NCBI GenBank assembly: GCA_041600695.1
Contig: JBFIJP010000003.1
Location: 1 to 34,707 of the forward strand
Origin: Thermoplasmatota archaeon
Lineage (GTDB): Archaea > Thermoplasmatota > E2 > JACPAO01 > JAHFTW01
Length of the DNA: 34,707 nt
Reading direction: 5' to 3'
Shown here: positions 4,313 to 28,457 of the stretch, one piece after another
Numbering within the stretch: the stretch's first letter is position 1
Layout of the letters: each line of letters begins with the position of its first letter
Translations under genes and position numbers: made by a program
Notes under the pieces: generated by a model
Told to the model about the DNA's origin: nothing
Databases searched by the model: none
Seen by the model: the letters and a program-made list of their open reading frames with translations, nothing else

Positions 4313-4801
4313 ATGCCCGACCAGACACCCACGGCGGGGCTCAGCAACGCACAGCTCATCGAACGCCTCGACGGCTTTCTTGATCAACTCGCCGAAGGAC
4401 ACCGCAAAACGATGGAGGAAGTCGCCTCCTGGCTGGAGGAGCACGGCAGCCTCGATGACGAAATCCGCACCAACGTGGAGGCGCTCAATCCACTTTTCCA
4501 GAAGTGGAGCTTCGAGATCTGCTTCCTTATCCGGCTGCGGGAACGAATCCGCTTCAATGAACTGAAGGAACAACTGGGCGGCATTGGCAGCCGCACACTC
4601 AGCCAGCGCCTCAAGGAACTGGAGGCGCAGGGACTGGTCAAGCGCGAGGCATTCGCCGAAGTCCCGGTCCGCGTCGAGTACAGCCTAACGCCCAAGGGCC
4701 TCCGCTTTGGCGACCTAATCATGCCCGTCATCGCGCACCTGCGCATCTGGGACATTCGGCATCGGCCCGCAAGGGACCCGGGCCCCCGGGCGAGCCCATA
4801 A
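4313..4801 (+). CDS. HxlR-family winged-helix transcriptional regulator
   Basis: KWS...RFNELKEQLGGIGSRTLSQRLKELEAQGLVKREAFAEVPVRVEYSLTPKG; divergent from the desaturase; ATG at 4313. Confidence 0.9.
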   Translation: MPDQTPTAGLSNAQLIERLDGFLDQLAEGHRKTMEEVASWLEEHGSLDDEIRTNVEALNPLFQKWSFEICFLIRLRERIRFNELKEQLGGIGSRTLSQRLKELEAQGLVKREAFAEVPVRVEYSLTPKGLRFGDLIMPVIAHLRIWDIRHRPARDPGPRASP

Positions 4802-4826
4802 CGCCACCCGGGCCCCAGTTCTCCGG

Positions 4827-6362
4827 GTGACTGGGTGGACGGTCGTTCAGGCGCTCGGTTGTGTGGTCGCCATGGTGGCATCCGGCAGCCTCGGAGCCCC
4901 TGGGCCGGGGCCCTCTGCCGCCTCCCCGCCTGCACGCGCGACCGCCGCCGGAGAAGCGGAGGTCAGCCCGATGCTGGCTTTTTCGTCCTACCTCGGCGGG
5001 TCGGACCGTGAGGAGTTCTTCAAGGGCCTCGCCGTCGACGCCGAGGGCTACATTTACCTCGCCGGCGGCACCCACAGCACCGACTACCCCGTGGCTGCCG
5101 CGTTGCAGGAGGAGCACGCGAGCCCCGGGGTCGAACAGGACATCGTCATCACCAAGCTCACCCCTGACGGCCAGTCAATCGTGTATTCCACCTACCTGGG
5201 GGGCAGCGACCGCGACTATGCCGTCGACATTGACGTTGACGCGGCTGGCAACGTCTACATCGTCGGCAAGACCGACTCGGCTGACTTTCCGGCCGTACGC
5301 CCCATCCAGGATGGGCTTGGCAGCACCGACAGCCCGGATGCTTTCTACGCCAAGCTCGACGCGTCCGGCGAATTTCTTCACTTCTCCTCCATCCTGGGCG
5401 GCGACGAGTACGACATCCTGACCGGCGTCGCCGCCGACAGCCGGGGTGGAATGACCTTCGTTGGCAAGACCCGCTCAACGGACCTTCCCACCACCCGGCG
5501 GGTCCTGCAACCCGAACTCGGCGGAGCTACCGACGCGTTTGCCGGACGCGTCCTGCGCGACGGCACCCTGCGCTACCTGACCTACCTGGGAGGGTCGGGG
5601 TACGACTACGCCCAGGCAATCGACCTGGACGCGCGCGGGCACGCCGTCATCGTGGGGCCCACCAGCAGCCGCGATTTTCCCGTCGTGGCCGGTGCATTCC
5701 AGACCGAAATCCCCACGGCGGGAGGGCCGGCCCAGGACTCCGGTTTCATTACCCACCTGCACCGCAGCGGACGCAGCCTGCTGGCCAGCACCTACTACGG
5801 CGGCAGCAGTGAGGACACGCTCCGGGGCGTCGACATCGGCGCCGATGGCAGCATCTACGTCGTCGGGGACACCAACTCGACCGACCTGAGCGTCCCCGGC
5901 GGCCAGGCCCCGGACGGCGACCGCGACGCCTTCGTAGCCCGGTTCGACGCGCAGGGATCGCTCGCATGGGCTACGGCGTTTGGCGGCAGCGGCCGCGAGT
6001 TCGGCCACGACCTGGCCGTCGGCCCGGCCGGGGAGGTGTACGTCATCGGGCAGACGCGGTCCACGGACCTGCCCGTCGCCAACGCCCCCCAAGGGGCACC
6101 CGCGGGCCTCGACGATGCTTTCCTGGTCGCCCTCGCCGCAGACGGGGCCGTGCAGTGGGCAACCTACCTGGGCGGGTCAGGAATGGACGAGGGCCGGGAG
6201 ATCGCGGCCAACCCGTCGGGGTCAAGCCTGCACGTTGCCGGATTGACGCGGTCCACAGACTTTCCCCTCGCCGACCCCCTCCTGGACCCCTACAGCGGCG
6301 TGCGCCGACCCCGCAACGTCGGCGACGCCTTCGTCGCCAGCCTAGATGTCCACACACCCTAG
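4827..6362 (+). CDS. secreted SBBP (beta-propeller repeat) protein
   Basis: Repeated (Y/F)STYLGGSxxD...GxxYxxGxTxSxDFP units; hydrophobic N-terminus; start uncertain. Confidence 0.88.
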   Translation: MTGWTVVQALGCVVAMVASGSLGAPGPGPSAASPPARATAAGEAEVSPMLAFSSYLGGSDREEFFKGLAVDAEGYIYLAGGTHSTDYPVAAALQEEHASPGVEQDIVITKLTPDGQSIVYSTYLGGSDRDYAVDIDVDAAGNVYIVGKTDSADFPAVRPIQDGLGSTDSPDAFYAKLDASGEFLHFSSILGGDEYDILTGVAADSRGGMTFVGKTRSTDLPTTRRVLQPELGGATDAFAGRVLRDGTLRYLTYLGGSGYDYAQAIDLDARGHAVIVGPTSSRDFPVVAGAFQTEIPTAGGPAQDSGFITHLHRSGRSLLASTYYGGSSEDTLRGVDIGADGSIYVVGDTNSTDLSVPGGQAPDGDRDAFVARFDAQGSLAWATAFGGSGREFGHDLAVGPAGEVYVIGQTRSTDLPVANAPQGAPAGLDDAFLVALAADGAVQWATYLGGSGMDEGREIAANPSGSSLHVAGLTRSTDFPLADPLLDPYSGVRRPRNVGDAFVASLDVHTP

Positions 6363-6485
6363 CCTGGCACCACCGAGCTCGTGAACCGGCGCGTCGGCTG
6401 ACCTCGCGCGGCGCAGCCGACCACCATTGAGCAGGACCTTGGCGACCGGCAACGCCTTTGAAGAGGGACTACCGGTAGGGGCCAC

Positions 6486-8585
6486 GTGGATCGATTGCAG
6501 CGGCTCGCCGTGGGGCTTGTGCTCCTGATGGCGCCCGTCATCCTGGCCGTTCCCGGCGAGGCACATTTGCCGGCGACGCCCGGCCTGGCGCCAACCGGGG
6601 CCGTCACCTTCGAACCGAATCGCGGCCAGGCGCCCGATGACGTTCTCTTTGTTGCCCGCACGCCCAACGGAATCGCACATGTTCTGGCGTCCGGCATCCG
6701 GCTGGGGCTGGAGGGCGAGCCCCTCAACATCCGATTCGACAACGGCCACGCCCGCAGCGCAGTTGGCGAAGACGCCACAGCTACGCTGGTCCATTCGTTG
6801 CGGGGCCAGGACCCGGACGCCTGGACCCACCTGCGCGTCTTCCAATCGGTCCTCTTGGAGGACGTGTACTCGGGCATCGACGTTCGACTGCGCGACGGGG
6901 GCGGACGCATCGAATACGACTTCATTGTGGCCCCTGGCGCGGACCCGGACGAGGCCGTTGTGCGCTTCGGCCCCAACGCAGCGCTCCGCCTGAGCGCCGG
7001 CAGCGGCGACCTGCAAATCCATGTCGCCGGCGGCACCGTCACCCAGGCGGCCCCCGTGGCCTACCAAGAAGATGCCAACGGCCAACTCGCCTTGGTGGAC
7101 GCAGCGTTCAAGCTATTGGGCAGCCAGCGCGTGGGCGTCCAGTTGGGCCCGCACGACCCGGCCAAGACGCTGGTCATCGATCCCGTGGTCGACTTCTCAA
7201 GCTACCTCGGGGGCTCCATCCGGGAAGATTTCTACAAGGGCCTCGCCGTCGACGACGACGGCTACATCTACATGGTGGGCGGCACCCGGAGTTCCGACTT
7301 TCCCACCTCACAGCCGCTCCAGCCGGACCACGGCAGCCCGGAGAGCGCGCTGGATGTGTTCATCACGAAGTTGACCCCGGACGGAAGCAGCGTCGTCTAC
7401 TCGACGTTCCTGGGTGGCAACGACCGGGATTACGCCGTCGATGTCGACATCGATGCGGCGGGCAATGTTTACGTCGTGGGCAAAACCGCCTCCCCTGACT
7501 TCCCGCTCGTGGCACCGACACAGGGCGCCATTGGGAGCCTCGACTGGCCCGATGGTTTCTACGCCAAGCTGGATGCATCCGGGGCGTTCCTGCACTACTC
7601 GTCGTACCTGGGCGGCAGCGACTACGACATCGTGACCGGCGTCGCGGCCGAGTCCCGGGGCGGCATGAGCATCGTGGGCAAGACCCGATCGACCGACGTT
7701 GCAACCACGGCGCGGGCGATGCAGCGCGACATGGCGGGGCATACGGATGCCCTCGCCGCCCGGGTCACCGCCGACGGCGAGCTTCGGTTCCTGACATATC
7801 TGGGGGGCAACGGCTATGACTATGCCCAGGCCGTGGTGCTGGACAAACGGGGACACATGATCCTCGTGGGCCCCAGCGGCAGCCCTGATTTCCCTGTCAG
7901 CCAGGGCGCGTTCCAGGAGGAATTGTCCCAAGACGGCGAGGTCCGCCAGGATTCCGGCTTCATCACGCGCCTCCACCGATCGGGAAGGGGAATCCTACAG
8001 AGTACCTTCTTCGGGGGAACCGATACGGATTTCCTGCGCGGCGTGGACCTTGACGCCCGTGGAAACATCTACGTTGTCGGTGACACCAATTCCACCGACC
8101 TGCCCGTTCTGGGCGGCCCCCAGCAGGCCCTCGCGGGCAGCCGCGATGCGTTTGCCGCGCGCCTGACGCGAAACCTGCAACCCGTATGGTCCACGTATCT
8201 GGGCGGCTCCGAAGCCGACTTCGGGTACGACCTTGCCGTCGGCGCCAACGGCCTGGTTCACATCGTTGGCCAGACCCGGTCCGTGGACCTGCCCGTGGTT
8301 GCGGCCGCGCAGCGGCAGCCGGCGGGCCTCGACGAAGCCTTCGTGGGCACCCTTGACACCCAGTCATCCCGCATCAGGTGGCTGACCTACGTCGGTGGCT
8401 CCGGCATTGACGAAGGCAAGGAGGTTGTCTTGGCACCAGACGGACGGCTGCATGTCGCAGGACTCACCCGCTCCACTGACTTCCCGCTGGTTTCGGCCCT
8501 CATGGACCCCTACCGGGATGACGCCCGGGCGCGCAACCAGGGCGATGCGTTCCTCGCCACCTTCGACCTTCAAAGGGAAGGCTAG
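6486..8585 (+). CDS. secreted SBBP repeat protein with the N-terminal domain typical of this family (FEPNRGQ...YSGID...IEYDFIVAPGADP...LVIDP)
   Basis: Signal peptide, family N-terminal motifs, then SBBP repeats collinear with 4827-6362. Confidence 0.9.
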   Translation: MDRLQRLAVGLVLLMAPVILAVPGEAHLPATPGLAPTGAVTFEPNRGQAPDDVLFVARTPNGIAHVLASGIRLGLEGEPLNIRFDNGHARSAVGEDATATLVHSLRGQDPDAWTHLRVFQSVLLEDVYSGIDVRLRDGGGRIEYDFIVAPGADPDEAVVRFGPNAALRLSAGSGDLQIHVAGGTVTQAAPVAYQEDANGQLALVDAAFKLLGSQRVGVQLGPHDPAKTLVIDPVVDFSSYLGGSIREDFYKGLAVDDDGYIYMVGGTRSSDFPTSQPLQPDHGSPESALDVFITKLTPDGSSVVYSTFLGGNDRDYAVDVDIDAAGNVYVVGKTASPDFPLVAPTQGAIGSLDWPDGFYAKLDASGAFLHYSSYLGGSDYDIVTGVAAESRGGMSIVGKTRSTDVATTARAMQRDMAGHTDALAARVTADGELRFLTYLGGNGYDYAQAVVLDKRGHMILVGPSGSPDFPVSQGAFQEELSQDGEVRQDSGFITRLHRSGRGILQSTFFGGTDTDFLRGVDLDARGNIYVVGDTNSTDLPVLGGPQQALAGSRDAFAARLTRNLQPVWSTYLGGSEADFGYDLAVGANGLVHIVGQTRSVDLPVVAAAQRQPAGLDEAFVGTLDTQSSRIRWLTYVGGSGIDEGKEVVLAPDGRLHVAGLTRSTDFPLVSALMDPYRDDARARNQGDAFLATFDLQREG

Positions 8586-24787: not shown

Positions 24788-25609
24788 CTAGGGAAGCCGG
24801 ATGAAGCTGTCTGTGAAGGCGCCGTCGATGACGCTCAGGAGGTAGGCCTGCGCCCTGGCGGAGCCCACGATCTGTTCGGCAACACTGCCCGGGGCCAGCT
24901 CCACGTACCCTGCGCCGCCGTAGGCGGCGCCGGCCGACGTATTGGTGTACCAGATGGCGTGGCCGGCGTCCCCCGGCTGGTACTCGGTGAAGTCACCGGC
25001 GAAGGTGGTCGGCGCCAGGCCGGCCCCGGCGATCCGGAAAGCACCCACATCGTCCATGCGGAACGACATGTCCATGGCGAGGCCAACGGGCGTCGTCGCC
25101 CACGGGTCAAGGCTCACTCCGCCTGCGTGAACGGGCAGGCCGGCTGCGCCCAGGACCTCCCGGCGCTCGTCGTCGGGCACCAAGGTGTCCCACTTGTAGA
25201 AGGTGAGGGACGCCTTGGGGCCGGTGGCGTTGGCTGGCGCCTCGACGCCGGTCCAGATGCTGCCGTACGTGATGTCCGCGATGGTACCGTTGAGGCCTTC
25301 GCCCGCGGCGCACGAGAAGGCCTCGATGCCAAGGATCCCTTCCATGCGCGGGTCCGGGGGCAGCATGGCCCGGATGGCGTCGGGCACGGCCGCGGTGAAC
25401 CCTTCGGCGAGGTGTGGCTGCACGGCGTCGGCGGGAACGGGCACAATCGCGATGGCCATCTGGCAATCGCTGAGGCCCCATGCAAGCTCCTGGACGGCCG
25501 GCGCGGCGTGTCCGCCGATGGTTTGCGCGTCGTCGGGTTCATCCTCGCTGATGCAGCCTGCCAGCAATGCCAGGGCAAGGATGCTGGGCATCATCCACCG
25601 GAAAGTCAT
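24788..25609 (-). CDS. hypothetical lipoprotein
   Basis: Lipobox LALLAGC; paralogous motifs shared with 25713-26540. Confidence 0.8.
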   Translation of the reverse strand: MTFRWMMPSILALALLAGCISEDEPDDAQTIGGHAAPAVQELAWGLSDCQMAIAIVPVPADAVQPHLAEGFTAAVPDAIRAMLPPDPRMEGILGIEAFSCAAGEGLNGTIADITYGSIWTGVEAPANATGPKASLTFYKWDTLVPDDERREVLGAAGLPVHAGGVSLDPWATTPVGLAMDMSFRMDDVGAFRIAGAGLAPTTFAGDFTEYQPGDAGHAIWYTNTSAGAAYGGAGYVELAPGSVAEQIVGSARAQAYLLSVIDGAFTDSFIRLP

Positions 25610-25712
25610 GCATCGAGACGAGCGCCGCGCGGCCATGAACGTTTGGGCCACCGGCCGGCTGGGGCGACGCGGGGAACAAAAAGCCTTGAGCATGGAGTGC
25701 GTGGAAATCAAC

Positions 25713-26540
25713 ATGCACCGATGGGCCGCTTGCGTGACGCTTGCATCTCTCCTGTTGGCGGGTTGCAGCAGCCCCGCCTCCGATCTTGATGACAACCTGG
25801 CTGCCGGAGCTCCCGACGCAGCCCCGCCAGTCGTGGATGCCTTCTCCATGCCCGTTTCCGCGTCCGACTGCCTGGAGCTGGGCGTCGTCATCCTGGTCAG
25901 CATGGCCCATGCCCAATCCCAGCTTCCGGAAGGCTTCGTGGCCGCCGACGCGCAGGCCTTCTTTGGCTCACCCACCCCCTTCAACCGCGCCGCGGTGTTC
26001 CTGACCAACACCCGCTGTGACACGACCGATCTCGCCGAGGCCGGCCTGACGGAGGCCCTGGTAGGCATCACCATCGAGGACCCCGGATTGCCCGCCAACG
26101 GAACCGCCACGGTCCACTTCTACGAACCTGCCCGTGGAACCGACACACCCGCCATGCGGCTCTTGATGGACCGCGTCGGCTGGGCCACGCAGGCGGACTC
26201 CATTCAATCCACCGCGGCCTTCGTGCCCCTCGTTCAGGGCTCCGGCGTCGTGAGCAACAACGGCACCGCCGTCTACGACATGGCCGTTCGCGCGTCCCCC
26301 ATGCCAGCCACCTTCAGCGGCACCTACCGTTGGTGGCAGCAGACCCCCCTCGGAGTGGGCTTGTTTGATTACACGCTGAGCGTCGACGGCTACATCGGTC
26401 ACGCCACGTGCAACATCGCCCCCGGCGCGGTGGCAGCCAGGGCCGCTGGTACCACCACCTGCACGGACGCCAACTCGGTCGGAGTCATTGCCCCGGGCCT
26501 CTCCTTCGAAGGCGGCTTCCAGTGGCTTGGGCTGGTGTAG
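25713..26540 (+). CDS. hypothetical lipoprotein, divergent paralogue of 24788-25609
   Basis: Lipobox LLLAGC; shared SDC, L(A/P)EGF, TF(A/S)G and APGxVA motifs. Confidence 0.8.
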   Translation: MHRWAACVTLASLLLAGCSSPASDLDDNLAAGAPDAAPPVVDAFSMPVSASDCLELGVVILVSMAHAQSQLPEGFVAADAQAFFGSPTPFNRAAVFLTNTRCDTTDLAEAGLTEALVGITIEDPGLPANGTATVHFYEPARGTDTPAMRLLMDRVGWATQADSIQSTAAFVPLVQGSGVVSNNGTAVYDMAVRASPMPATFSGTYRWWQQTPLGVGLFDYTLSVDGYIGHATCNIAPGAVAARAAGTTTCTDANSVGVIAPGLSFEGGFQWLGLV

Positions 26541-26621
26541 GCGGCCAGCCAGGCTGACCGGGCCCGCGGCGCCCCGCCGAGGACAGCCGTTAAACGAGCC
26601 CTCCGAGTGGGCGGCCCAGCC

Positions 26622-28457
26622 ATGCTGGACATCAAGCTCTTGCGCGAAACGCCCGAAGTGGTCAAAGCCGACCTGCGCAAGCGCGGGTGGGATCCAGCCC
26701 TGGTAGATCACTTCATCAAATGGGACAACACCTGGCGTGCCGCATCCACAGAAATCAATGAAGCCCGGGCGGAGAGGAACGCCGTGGCCAAGGCTTATGG
26801 TCCTTTAATGGGCCGTTTCAAAAAGTTTGACAACTTGGCAACCGCTCTTCAGGCGAACATATCCGTCGTGAATAGCTACCTCCAATTCAACAAGGAAGCC
26901 GGGCCCGTGGCGAGATGGCTAATGGCAAACCGAAAGCGACGTGCGGCGATGCTGGCTGCCGTGGATTTCTGCGTTGCATTCGCCCGCGTCGGTGAAGCCG
27001 CGAAGGCCTACGATGAGCAGTTTCACCAGTTCTTCCAGGCGGTGGGAAAGGACCGCGGCGTGGCCTTGCAGCGCTCGGACGACGGTTTGTTTGCTAGCCT
27101 AGACGAAAAACTTGAGCACGCAGAAACGCTGCGCCTGAATTGCGTCGACTATGCGTCAATCAAAAAACCGACCGAGGAACAAATAAATCGTCACATACAA
27201 AATATCCTTTCCAGTCCGCTGTGGCCTGCCGACGATCTTTGGACGCTCATTTCAGAAATCCGTGCTCGCCACGATGCGCCCCACGACCTTGCAAGTTCCA
27301 CGACTGCGCGTGTAAAGGACCTGGATAGAACACTTGCAGAGTCGCAGCGTGAGTGGTGGGCCATCCGGCGACGCCTTCCAAACATCATGCACGACTCTGT
27401 GCCTGTGGGGAAGGATGATCGTGACAATGTGCCGATTAAGTTCGAAGGAACCGCCCGCGTGCACGATTTCCCGGCGGTCAGCCACGTGGACCTCCTCGAA
27501 AGCCTTGACGTGGCGGATCTCGAACGCGCTGCCCGCGCCGCAGGGGCGCGGTTCGTCTACCTGAAGGGCGACTTGGTTCTCCTGGCCAAGGCGCTGGAGT
27601 TCTTCGCGCTCACCAAGCTGACCGGCAAGGGTTTCACCCCCGTAGAACCGCCGTTCATGCTGCGCCGGGAGGCCATCGAGGGAGCCGTGGACCTGTCCGA
27701 CTTCGAGGACGTGATCTACAAGGTCGAGGCCGGGGCGGGGGCTGGAAAAGACGATGCCCCGGAGCTGTTCCTGATCGCCACCAGCGAGCACCCTCTGGCG
27801 GCGCTGCACATGGGCGAGATCTTCGAGGACGCCCAGCTTCCCCTGCGCTACGCTGGCGTTAGCCCGTGCTTCCGCAAGGAGGCCGGCGCCCACGGCAAAG
27901 ACACCAAGGGCATCTTTCGGGTCCACCAGTTCAGCAAGGTCGAGCAATTCGTTTACTGTACGGCTGAGGACTCCTGGGCCATCCACGAGGAACTCATTGC
28001 CAACGCCGAGGAGATTTACCGGGAACTCGGCATTCCGTACCGCGTCGTCAACATCTGTACCGGCGATCTGGGCACCGTGGCGGCCAAGAAATACGACATC
28101 GAGGCGTGGATGCCGGTGCAGGGCGCCTACCGCGAGGTGGTGAGTTGCTCCAACTGCACCGACTACCAGGCTCGGCGCTACAATACCCGCCACCGCAAAG
28201 CCCCGGGCGAGCCCACATCGTTCGTTCACACCCTCAACTCGACGGCGGTCGCGGTCCAGCGCACACTCGTGGCCATCCTGGAGAACTTCCAGCAAGCCGA
28301 TGGTTCGGTGATGATTCCCGAGCCGCTGCGCCAGTACCTGGGTGGCCGTGACCGGATCCGTCCCGCCGTGGCCCCCCGGGCCGCTGAGCCCGACGAGGCG
28401 GCCGGTGAGCCGGAAGCAGTTGCTCAAGCCTCCAAGCCCGCACCGCCTTCATCCTAG
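26622..28457 (+). CDS. serS: serine--tRNA ligase (canonical type) with a large in-frame insertion in the N-terminal coiled-coil arm
   Basis: MLDIKLLRE, LPNIMHDSVPVG, LIATSEHPL, motif 2 FRKEAGAHGKDTKGIFRVHQFSKVE, EVVSCSNCTDYQARR, motif 3 TLNSTAVAVQRT. Confidence 0.96.
   Translation: MLDIKLLRETPEVVKADLRKRGWDPALVDHFIKWDNTWRAASTEINEARAERNAVAKAYGPLMGRFKKFDNLATALQANISVVNSYLQFNKEAGPVARWLMANRKRRAAMLAAVDFCVAFARVGEAAKAYDEQFHQFFQAVGKDRGVALQRSDDGLFASLDEKLEHAETLRLNCVDYASIKKPTEEQINRHIQNILSSPLWPADDLWTLISEIRARHDAPHDLASSTTARVKDLDRTLAESQREWWAIRRRLPNIMHDSVPVGKDDRDNVPIKFEGTARVHDFPAVSHVDLLESLDVADLERAARAAGARFVYLKGDLVLLAKALEFFALTKLTGKGFTPVEPPFMLRREAIEGAVDLSDFEDVIYKVEAGAGAGKDDAPELFLIATSEHPLAALHMGEIFEDAQLPLRYAGVSPCFRKEAGAHGKDTKGIFRVHQFSKVEQFVYCTAEDSWAIHEELIANAEEIYRELGIPYRVVNICTGDLGTVAAKKYDIEAWMPVQGAYREVVSCSNCTDYQARRYNTRHRKAPGEPTSFVHTLNSTAVAVQRTLVAILENFQQADGSVMIPEPLRQYLGGRDRIRPAVAPRAAEPDEAAGEPEAVAQASKPAPPSS

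Follow-up and report, generated by a model that had tools for sequence, protein, structure and literature searches.

Some enzymes are so conserved that an extra domain within them calls for explanation. The contig JBFIJP010000003.1 (GenBank assembly GCA_041600695.1) belongs to a metagenome-assembled genome of a marine Thermoplasmatota archaeon, and its positions 1 to 34,707 (forward strand; referred to as the window, 34,707 nucleotides [nt] in total) contain a single gene for seryl-tRNA synthetase (SerRS), serS. The encoded protein has 611 amino acids (aa), compared with 430 to 456 aa in its relatives, and extra coding sequence interrupts the arm with which SerRS binds tRNA. The question raised by this locus is whether the additional residues are translated and retained in the enzyme, or whether they are removed from the RNA or the protein, or result from a faulty assembly. 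Relatives were drawn from a set of 41 genomes, comprising the organism's own and those of its genus, family, order, and class. Below, G000 denotes the organism studied, G002 a genome of the same genus, L003 the same-genus ortholog locus, and G010 a genome of another genus in the same family.

Size and coding status of the enlarged arm

A preliminary description of the window had counted about 200 codons between the motifs ERN and LPN of the arm, where canonical SerRS has roughly 50. Measured between the motif starts (26772 and 27375), the distance was 201 codons, compared with ~52 in L003. From residue 21 to LPN, the arm comprised 231 codons in G000 and 234 in G010, whereas all 16 canonical relatives had exactly 83. 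Alignment with eight relatives set the borders of the insert; one other carrier, G010, has an insert of the same size. The extra ~150 to 170 codons lie at about 26799 to 27311 and are open in frame, whereas the canonical hairpin tip of ~22 residues is lost, leaving a net gain of ~148 to 150 codons (148 in the arm of G000 versus 151 in that of G010). The in-frame insertion of ~150 aa first proposed was therefore borne out, with a net addition of 148 codons and with the matches to Pfam, TIGR00414, and the structure 2dq0 all breaking at this site.

The protein scored 491.3 bits against the serS equivalog TIGR00414 (cut-off, 301.65 bits), the match being split into two stretches, of which the second resumed at aa 232, equivalent to profile position 81. 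Pfam Seryl_tRNA_N (PF02403) covered aa 6 to 71 only (profile positions 1 to 66 of 108), and the class II core, tRNA-synt_2b (PF00587), was matched at aa 371 to 561 (E 7e-44). The best solved relative, SerRS of P. horikoshii (2dq0, E 9e-131), aligned as two segments with a break at this same place. The arm base has kept its invariant residues (R49, R52, N53, R250, P253, and N254). A GTG at 26607, upstream of the serS ATG, would give an alternative start and a protein of 616 aa; the proteins of the relatives likewise begin with MLDI. The G000 genome (86% complete) yielded no second serS. Its bin measures 4.23 Mb with 0.08% contamination, the same-genus genomes being 3.0 to 3.2 Mb and those of the rest of the family 1.3 to 2.8 Mb.

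The frame of the insert contained no stop codon, whereas every one of the five alternative frames had five or six; when its 513 nt were shuffled, the frame stayed open in only 15 of 20,000 trials. GC content by codon position was coding-like (GC1, 0.62; GC2, 0.42; GC3, 0.61), with GC3 at 0.80 in the core, and the G010 insert was likewise open in frame. The compositional contrast pointed out initially was reproduced: the GC counts given for 27181 to 27240 (26 of 60) and 27841 to 27900 (43 of 60) were exact, and the many A/T-ending codons noticed from about 26700 to 27450 were confirmed (96 of 250 in 26700 to 27449 versus 58 of 335 downstream and 6 of 31 upstream). With a GC content of 55.2%, the insert ranked in the lowest 1.3% of 39,592 sampled windows of 513 nt in a genome of 65.6% GC. 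GC3 of the arm lay below that of the core by 0.22 in G000 and by 0.38 in G010, whereas this difference ranged from −0.15 to +0.12 in the 16 canonical relatives. Since the frame of the insert is open, translation is favored over an intron, and the extra ~150 residues are probably translated and remain in one continuous SerRS protein.

A canonical-type serS was matched in 31 of the 41 genomes. In 28 of the 30 matched relatives, both same-genus genomes among them, the N-terminal and core matches lay no more than 120 nt apart; of the other two, G010 carries the insert and G005 is cut by a contig end. The G010 serS matched from end to end (58% over 582 codons). Its public gene call (403 aa; serS at 908 to 2671 of L002, equivalent to G010:C219) starts at a Met inside the insert and has lost the N-terminal domain, an example of how annotation can miss a SerRS with an enlarged arm. 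Among the best 120 protein clusters out of 5.8 billion proteins, extra arm length was present only in the G000 and G010 proteins; a 566-aa entry in this group proved to be an upstream over-call with a normal arm. Open frames of at least 560 aa occurred in 3 of 132 other genomes of the phylum that matched the downstream flank, and all three had normal arms. Where other members of the phylum had long open frames, these were dismissed as upstream read-through, with canonical arms at all seven loci in which serS was recognized (eight fetched).

Homologs of the insert itself were equally scarce. A search of the 5.8 billion proteins with aa 60 to 240 returned this protein only (748 candidates), and one with aa 50 to 270 of the G010 protein returned only its own truncated gene call (766 candidates). 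The single phmmer match among 1.84 billion representatives (E 1.4e-4) was a CHAT/AAA/TPR_12 repeat protein aligned in 15 stretches and was read as helical-repeat noise. The ESM Atlas gave no usable match, none of the 37 other genomes of the order matched the insert, and metagenome scans with the insert peptide (P0002, 171 aa) and with P0003 produced 124 and 67 pattern matches, respectively, none of which was confirmed. In its own genome, the insert had neither a paralog (best other match, E 0.27) nor copies detectable by blastn or tblastx, and all local scores for an internal duplication or an origin from the arm were within those of shuffles; the insert is not a repeat. Nor did the suggestion that other genes might harbor similar inserts find backing. 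A crude genome-wide screen for low-GC3 islands ranked serS 15th of 1340 long frames, and 7 other internal islands, read from their translations, included 3 real-protein-like and 4 wrong-frame, Arg/Pro-rich segments but no obvious insert, so that no genome-wide habit was seen. By these sequence comparisons, the insert is an orphan enlargement and rare, with one other carrier known, in another genus.

Predicted structure, flanking divergence, and possible function

AlphaFold2 (AF2) predicted helices at residues 26 to 92, 95 to 100, 104 to 141, 155 to 178, 185 to 196, and 204 to 251 (611-aa numbering). The predicted local distance difference test score (pLDDT) was 73 to 89 in the helices of the insert and 59 to 66 in its loops; parts of the core scored lower. 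A structural search with the whole model placed SerRS structures in the top rows (2dq0, Z 19.1). Residues 55 to 226 alone aligned to four-helix bundles, namely, 8w6e (Z 12.9; 156 residues; root mean square deviation [rmsd] 3.6), 6y07 (Z 12.7), 6egc (Z 11.7), and 1z23, the p130Cas serine-rich domain (Z 11.1). Alignments with designed bundles spanned 143 to 156 residues at an rmsd of 3.6 to 3.7 and Z of 11.7 to 12.9, and Z values under ~13 are common for helical bundles. In the predicted model, the insert would prolong both the outgoing and the returning helix of the antiparallel tRNA-binding arm by ~30 residues each, and two further helices would pack on these prolonged helices, which would turn a simple hairpin tip into a four-helix bundle of ~150 residues. 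The first two helices of the bundle were basic (net charge +4, with an RKRR run), and the remainder was acidic (net charge −6).

An insertion neatly confined to the hairpin turn, as originally envisaged, described only part of the change: the insert was confirmed, but the diverged tract (26690 to 27470; GC content, 55.6%) was wider, and the whole arm is involved. Amino acid identity to G002 (616-aa numbering) was 100% for aa 1 to 25, 42% for aa 26 to 64, 32% for aa 236 to 260, 53% for aa 261 to 290, and 84 to 98% beyond aa 290, and nucleotide identity was 45 to 60% over the tract versus 76 to 93% outside it. GC3 was lowered across the same tract, whereas the arm of the same-genus ortholog keeps 0.77 to 0.93. 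Nonsynonymous divergence (dN) reached 0.51 to 0.56 in the flanks, compared with 0.06 to 0.08 in the core, and the proportion of synonymous differences (pS) was 0.69 to 0.82 versus 0.50 to 0.58; the core is therefore under strong purifying selection. Even there, synonymous sites were near saturation, so that synonymous divergence (dS) cannot decide the origin of the arm.

Because the diverged low-GC3 tract is wider than the insert, the arm appears to have been remodeled or imported as a unit. This module of ~780 nt would have changed after the split from the sister species. If imported, it may have arrived in one piece by recombination, with an as yet unsampled, lower-GC relative as the donor, and family members with a serS GC3 of 0.64 to 0.71 do exist. 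Alternatively, the arm may have been rebuilt in place following the insertion. The best matches of the downstream flank were in its own family (52 to 71%; 133 of 401 genomes of the phylum matched).

The inserts of G000 and G010 occupy the same site with similar net gains, and their predicted helix breaks fall at similar places. A global alignment of the two scored a z of 3.84, which none of 500 shuffles reached, with identity at 16 of 105 aligned positions. A tree of flank residues paired the two proteins with a support of 0.82, their branches measuring 0.80 and 0.59 compared with a median of 0.115. The N-terminally truncated P0091, P0101, and P0102 were left out of this tree, as was P0006, for which a full translation was used instead. 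Nine non-consensus flank residues were common to G000 and G010, all of which also occurred in other sequences, and other sequences shared 10 to 13 with G000. The G010 insert may be a very diverged homolog or a parallel solution, with about equal likelihood.

Three options had been offered for the insert at the outset: a new accessory domain, a hypervariable shield, or an RNA-level intervening sequence. The accessory domain is the best supported of the three. Its open frame and the confidently predicted helical bundle, continuous with the arm helices, speak for a domain as such, whereas the altered tRNA recognition or partner binding attributed to it is what we infer only. With its catalytic domain and arm base intact, the enzyme should still charge tRNA-Ser and serve translation. 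The SerRS arm contacts the variable arm and the elbow of the tRNA in the T. thermophilus complex. The predicted bundle would extend past the arm segment that recognizes the variable arm and would most likely act as an added surface, which could touch the tRNA at its elbow or variable arm or serve as a docking site for a partner.

The G000 genome has three tRNA-Ser genes (C38, C142, and C359), two of which are 85 to 86 bases long and have ordinary variable arms. The tRNA-Ser(GCT) reported by ARAGORN at G000:C38:10280-10379 (L023:51-150, minus strand) has 100 bases and an unusually long variable-arm stem of ~7 bp with several mismatches. It may instead contain an intron; a search for its counterpart in five relatives gave one partial match only.

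Several points weigh against a translated accessory domain with a function of its own. On the structural side, the AF2 input was an 18-row alignment in which the insert was effectively represented by one row, the predicted template modeling score (pTM) was only 0.44, and the matches to four-helix bundles name a shape rather than a relative, as Z ~13 reflects a common arrangement. The G010 insert was also predicted as helical, but at a pLDDT of 35 to 50 and with no confident fold. BLASTP, which found no significant likeness between the two inserts (E 71), likewise spoke against their kinship, as did their local alignment score (z 0.76, reached by 108 of 500 shuffles), and the pairing of their flanks was put down to long-branch attraction, given the long branches and the lack of private shared residues. 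No outside donor for the downstream flank was seen among the 401 genomes of the phylum. With regard to function, the accessory-surface role is purely one that we infer. No change in tRNA was seen to covary with the arm, two of the three tRNA-Ser genes having ordinary variable arms; no close relative carries the insert; and no RNA run was among the runs containing the stretch. Finally, low GC3 and orphan status would equally fit a barely constrained passenger.

Competing explanations

Such a tolerated passenger would be new or foreign coding sequence that settled at a permissive arm tip and is nearly neutral, with no function of its own. The arm tip is structurally the most permissive site of SerRS, and a foreign domain has been fused to SerRS by engineering (PDB 3err). 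The insert is an orphan and very rare among relatives, GC3 is 0.2 to 0.4 below the core in both carriers, as expected with weak codon selection, and the two inserts have diverged beyond recognition. However, the frame has stayed open over 171 codons, as did only 15 of 20,000 shuffles, the helices are predicted confidently and packed as a bundle, and two genera have gained almost the same net number of codons (148 and 151). Moreover, the flanking arm residues are strongly changed, which a passenger at a free tip would not need. We consider a passenger unlikely.

Divergence beyond recognition between the two inserts would also suit the second of the original options, in which the insert is a hypervariable shield, i.e., a fast-changing surface that evades a virus or toxin factor aimed at the SerRS arm. 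Consistent with this, dN of the arm (insert and flanks) was 7 to 9 times that of the core. Over short timescales, the idea found no support: the contigs of four of four sequencing runs were identical within the insert, and only the deep divergence from the G010 insert fits fast evolution. The dN/dS of the flanks was below 1 (dN about 0.5; pS, 0.69 to 0.82), and no diversity-generating element or repeat was found. We know of no antagonist of the SerRS arm, and a shield is very improbable.

According to the third original option, the insert is an RNA-level intervening sequence that the archaeal splicing endonuclease excises at a bulge-helix-bulge motif, restoring a canonical SerRS. The host is an archaeon and the insert is a multiple of three. 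We scanned for strict bulge-helix-bulge motifs joining both junctions in frame, with 300 shuffles as a control. Eight in-frame candidates were obtained, compared with 4.35 ± 2.3 in shuffles, and one of them had outer and inner helices of 3 bp (0.58 expected by chance). Splicing at this candidate, with cuts after 26741 and 27395, would take out the entire arm, including the invariant ERN and LPN. Because the canonical tip of ~22 residues, which relatives conserve, is missing, cutting out any part of the insert could not give back a normal arm. There was no Rfam match at E up to 1, and an intron needs no open frame, whereas the insert is open in this one of six frames and is open in G010 too. 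The scan was unconvincing overall, and splicing of this kind can hardly be upheld.

A chimeric assembly, in which the serS ends of one strain were joined to an unrelated middle, is scarcely more credible. The runs holding the DNA are marine metagenomes, and Logan contigs built separately from four of them (X1 to X4) cover the junctions at identities of at least 99% with no joint. One contig of X1 extends over 26420 to 27619 and one of X2 over 26654 to 27800, while contigs of X3 and X4 cover 26654 to 27190 and 26791 to 27528, respectively. The concern raised at the outset, that reads might not span the junctions, was thereby largely dispelled, both junctions being covered by per-run contigs. 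All four runs are from one study, and two of the samples may be the source of the assembly, so that their support is not fully independent. No variant without the insert occurred in the contigs of the four runs, and no difference was found within 26799 to 27311 among them. A chimera might be suspected from the X2 and X3 contigs, which break at 26649 to 26654, where depth doubles and where the serS of another organism has the same conserved 5′ end. X1 bridges the break point near 26650, however, and between them the X1 and X2 contigs leave no junction of the diverged tract unbridged, with 0 to 1 differences. The middle is, moreover, a SerRS arm in its own right, whose invariant residues line up in register.

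An intein or another protein-splicing element, removed after translation, would fit an in-frame insertion in an essential conserved gene but has a negligible probability, as the borders show no Cys/Ser/Thr at the start and no HN-Cys/Ser/Thr at the end and neither the whole protein nor the insert alone matched Hint, intein, LAGLIDADG, or HNH families in Pfam at E up to 1 (both as noted previously), the AF2 model is all-helical with no beta-rich Hint fold, and the site is a solvent-exposed hairpin rather than a catalytic motif.

Related synthetases, gene context, and implications

The protein shares with P. horikoshii SerRS (2dq0) the two-domain plan of an N-terminal helical arm and a class II core. 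It departs from canonical SerRS in arm length (231 versus 83 codons), with the arm base present, invariant residues included, and the tip of ~170 residues had no counterpart in solved SerRS (29 PDB sequences matched). Excerpts of a SerRS review (PMC10817482) describe terminal extensions and Insertion I of human cytosolic SerRS (G75-N97), 23 residues in the tRNA-binding domain of higher eukaryotes for which crosstalk with the active site and a role in DNA binding are reported; a large arm-tip domain is not mentioned in these excerpts. As far as the excerpts go, Insertion I resembles the present insert as a lineage-specific addition to the SerRS tRNA-binding arm, but it differs in lineage and in size (23 versus ~150 to 170 residues). 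Alignments with human SerRS started at aa 241 to 245 and covered aa 241 to 598 only, leaving the insert unaligned to Insertion I.

Sporadic extra domains also occur inside other aminoacyl-tRNA synthetases. The CAAD domain insertions of cyanobacterial enzymes are reportedly membrane-spanning and are said to provide a new cellular interaction without loss of charging. They are found in enzymes other than SerRS, whereas the present insert has no such Pfam match and is predicted to form a soluble helical bundle. The membrane-anchored ValRS of cyanobacteria is a case of a sporadic extra domain, as far as excerpts of the source indicate (PMC4893482). In the crystallized 3err, an engineered fusion of a dynein microtubule-binding domain with SerRS, a foreign coiled-coil-borne domain is likewise carried by SerRS, but the construct is artificial and the grafted domain is unrelated to the insert. 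We take the position of this graft to be the SerRS arm tip.

The methanogen-type SerRS (NF002120; 2cim and 3w3s) is another form of the enzyme, with a different, larger N-terminal tRNA-binding domain. The protein studied here scored only 14.4 bits against NF002120 (E 0.011; cut-off, 611), and G000 had no NF002120 match. In five of five near-complete genomes from other orders of the class (G031, G032, G035, G036, and G039), no serS passed TIGR00414 (best score, 41 bits), and all four tested in other orders of the class had a full-length methanogen-type SerRS with NF002120 scores of 469 to 528 bits, below the strict cut-off of 611. In the order of G000, a canonical-type SerRS was found in 30 of 30 relatives searched. 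By sequence, the class is split by SerRS type, with the canonical type in the order of G000 and the methanogen type in other orders. No paper on this split was found in a search of full-text literature. The same literature, whose scope mostly leaves out subscription journals, yielded none on a large insert in archaeal SerRS.

Features of serS in the window and the basis of their assignment
Feature	Position	Strand	Basis and remarks
serS (611 aa)	26622..28457, stop included	+	Open reading frame list and translation; ATG common to all relatives
Conserved 5′ end (first ~25 residues)	26622..26689	+	100% aa identity to G002 over aa 1-25; nt identity 86-93%
Diverged low-GC3 arm tract	26690..27470	+	Insert plus ~110 nt and ~160 nt of flanking canonical arm/linker
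Insert proper (P0002, 171 aa)	26799..27311	+	Alignment with 8 relatives, profile breaks, open frame, AF2 helices
Class II catalytic domain, conserved	27471..28361	+	84-98% identity to G002 by region; dN 0.06-0.08
C-terminal Pro/Ala/Glu-rich tail (~30 aa)	28362..28454	+	Translation; beyond the end of most relatives

Residues 585 to 611 of the tail are predicted to be disordered (pLDDT below 50). In the catalytic domain of two other family members (P0101 and P0068), an extra Pro/Ala/Ser-rich stretch of 25 to 35 residues occupies a surface loop after the VEAG motif; this loop corresponds to ~27730 to 27780 of the window, and G000 has the short form. Neighbors of serS include genes for an archaeal-type ribosomal protein S15 and a phosphoglycerate dehydrogenase. 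Upstream of serS, two long open frames overlap (24788 to 26110, minus strand, and 25203 to 26540, plus strand), each with no Pfam match and with a lipobox-like signal (a hydrophobic run ending in AGC); judged by sequence, they look like divergently transcribed lipoprotein genes. This upstream region had no similarity to the same-genus locus. Farther away, 4719 to 6359 and 6462 to 8582 (plus strand) encode adjacent large proteins with SBBP beta-propeller repeats, the second also with DUF7948.

We conclude that the locus encodes a real, rare, and orphan enlargement of the SerRS arm, a variant of a known enzyme, which, by sequence and model, is probably translated. The SerRS arm is a textbook example of how proteins read tRNA shape, with a length invariant to the codon in the 16 canonical relatives. 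An arm nearly tripled by nature offers a test of which portion is needed for recognition of tRNA-Ser and a natural scaffold for grafts at the arm tip. It may also exemplify the emergence or exchange, within a genus, of a new accessory domain in a synthetase. Even as a neutral passenger, the insert would still gauge the permissiveness of the arm tip. More speculatively, and with rather low probability, the enlarged arm could be an exchangeable, fast-evolving four-helix-bundle cap that moves between lineages by serS recombination and gives SerRS a second job. This job might be the docking of a tRNA-modifying enzyme, the ribosome, or another synthetase, or an altered acceptance of tRNAs with long variable arms, and the cap would then be the first natural case in prokaryotes in which the tip of the SerRS arm bears a large grafted domain with a function.

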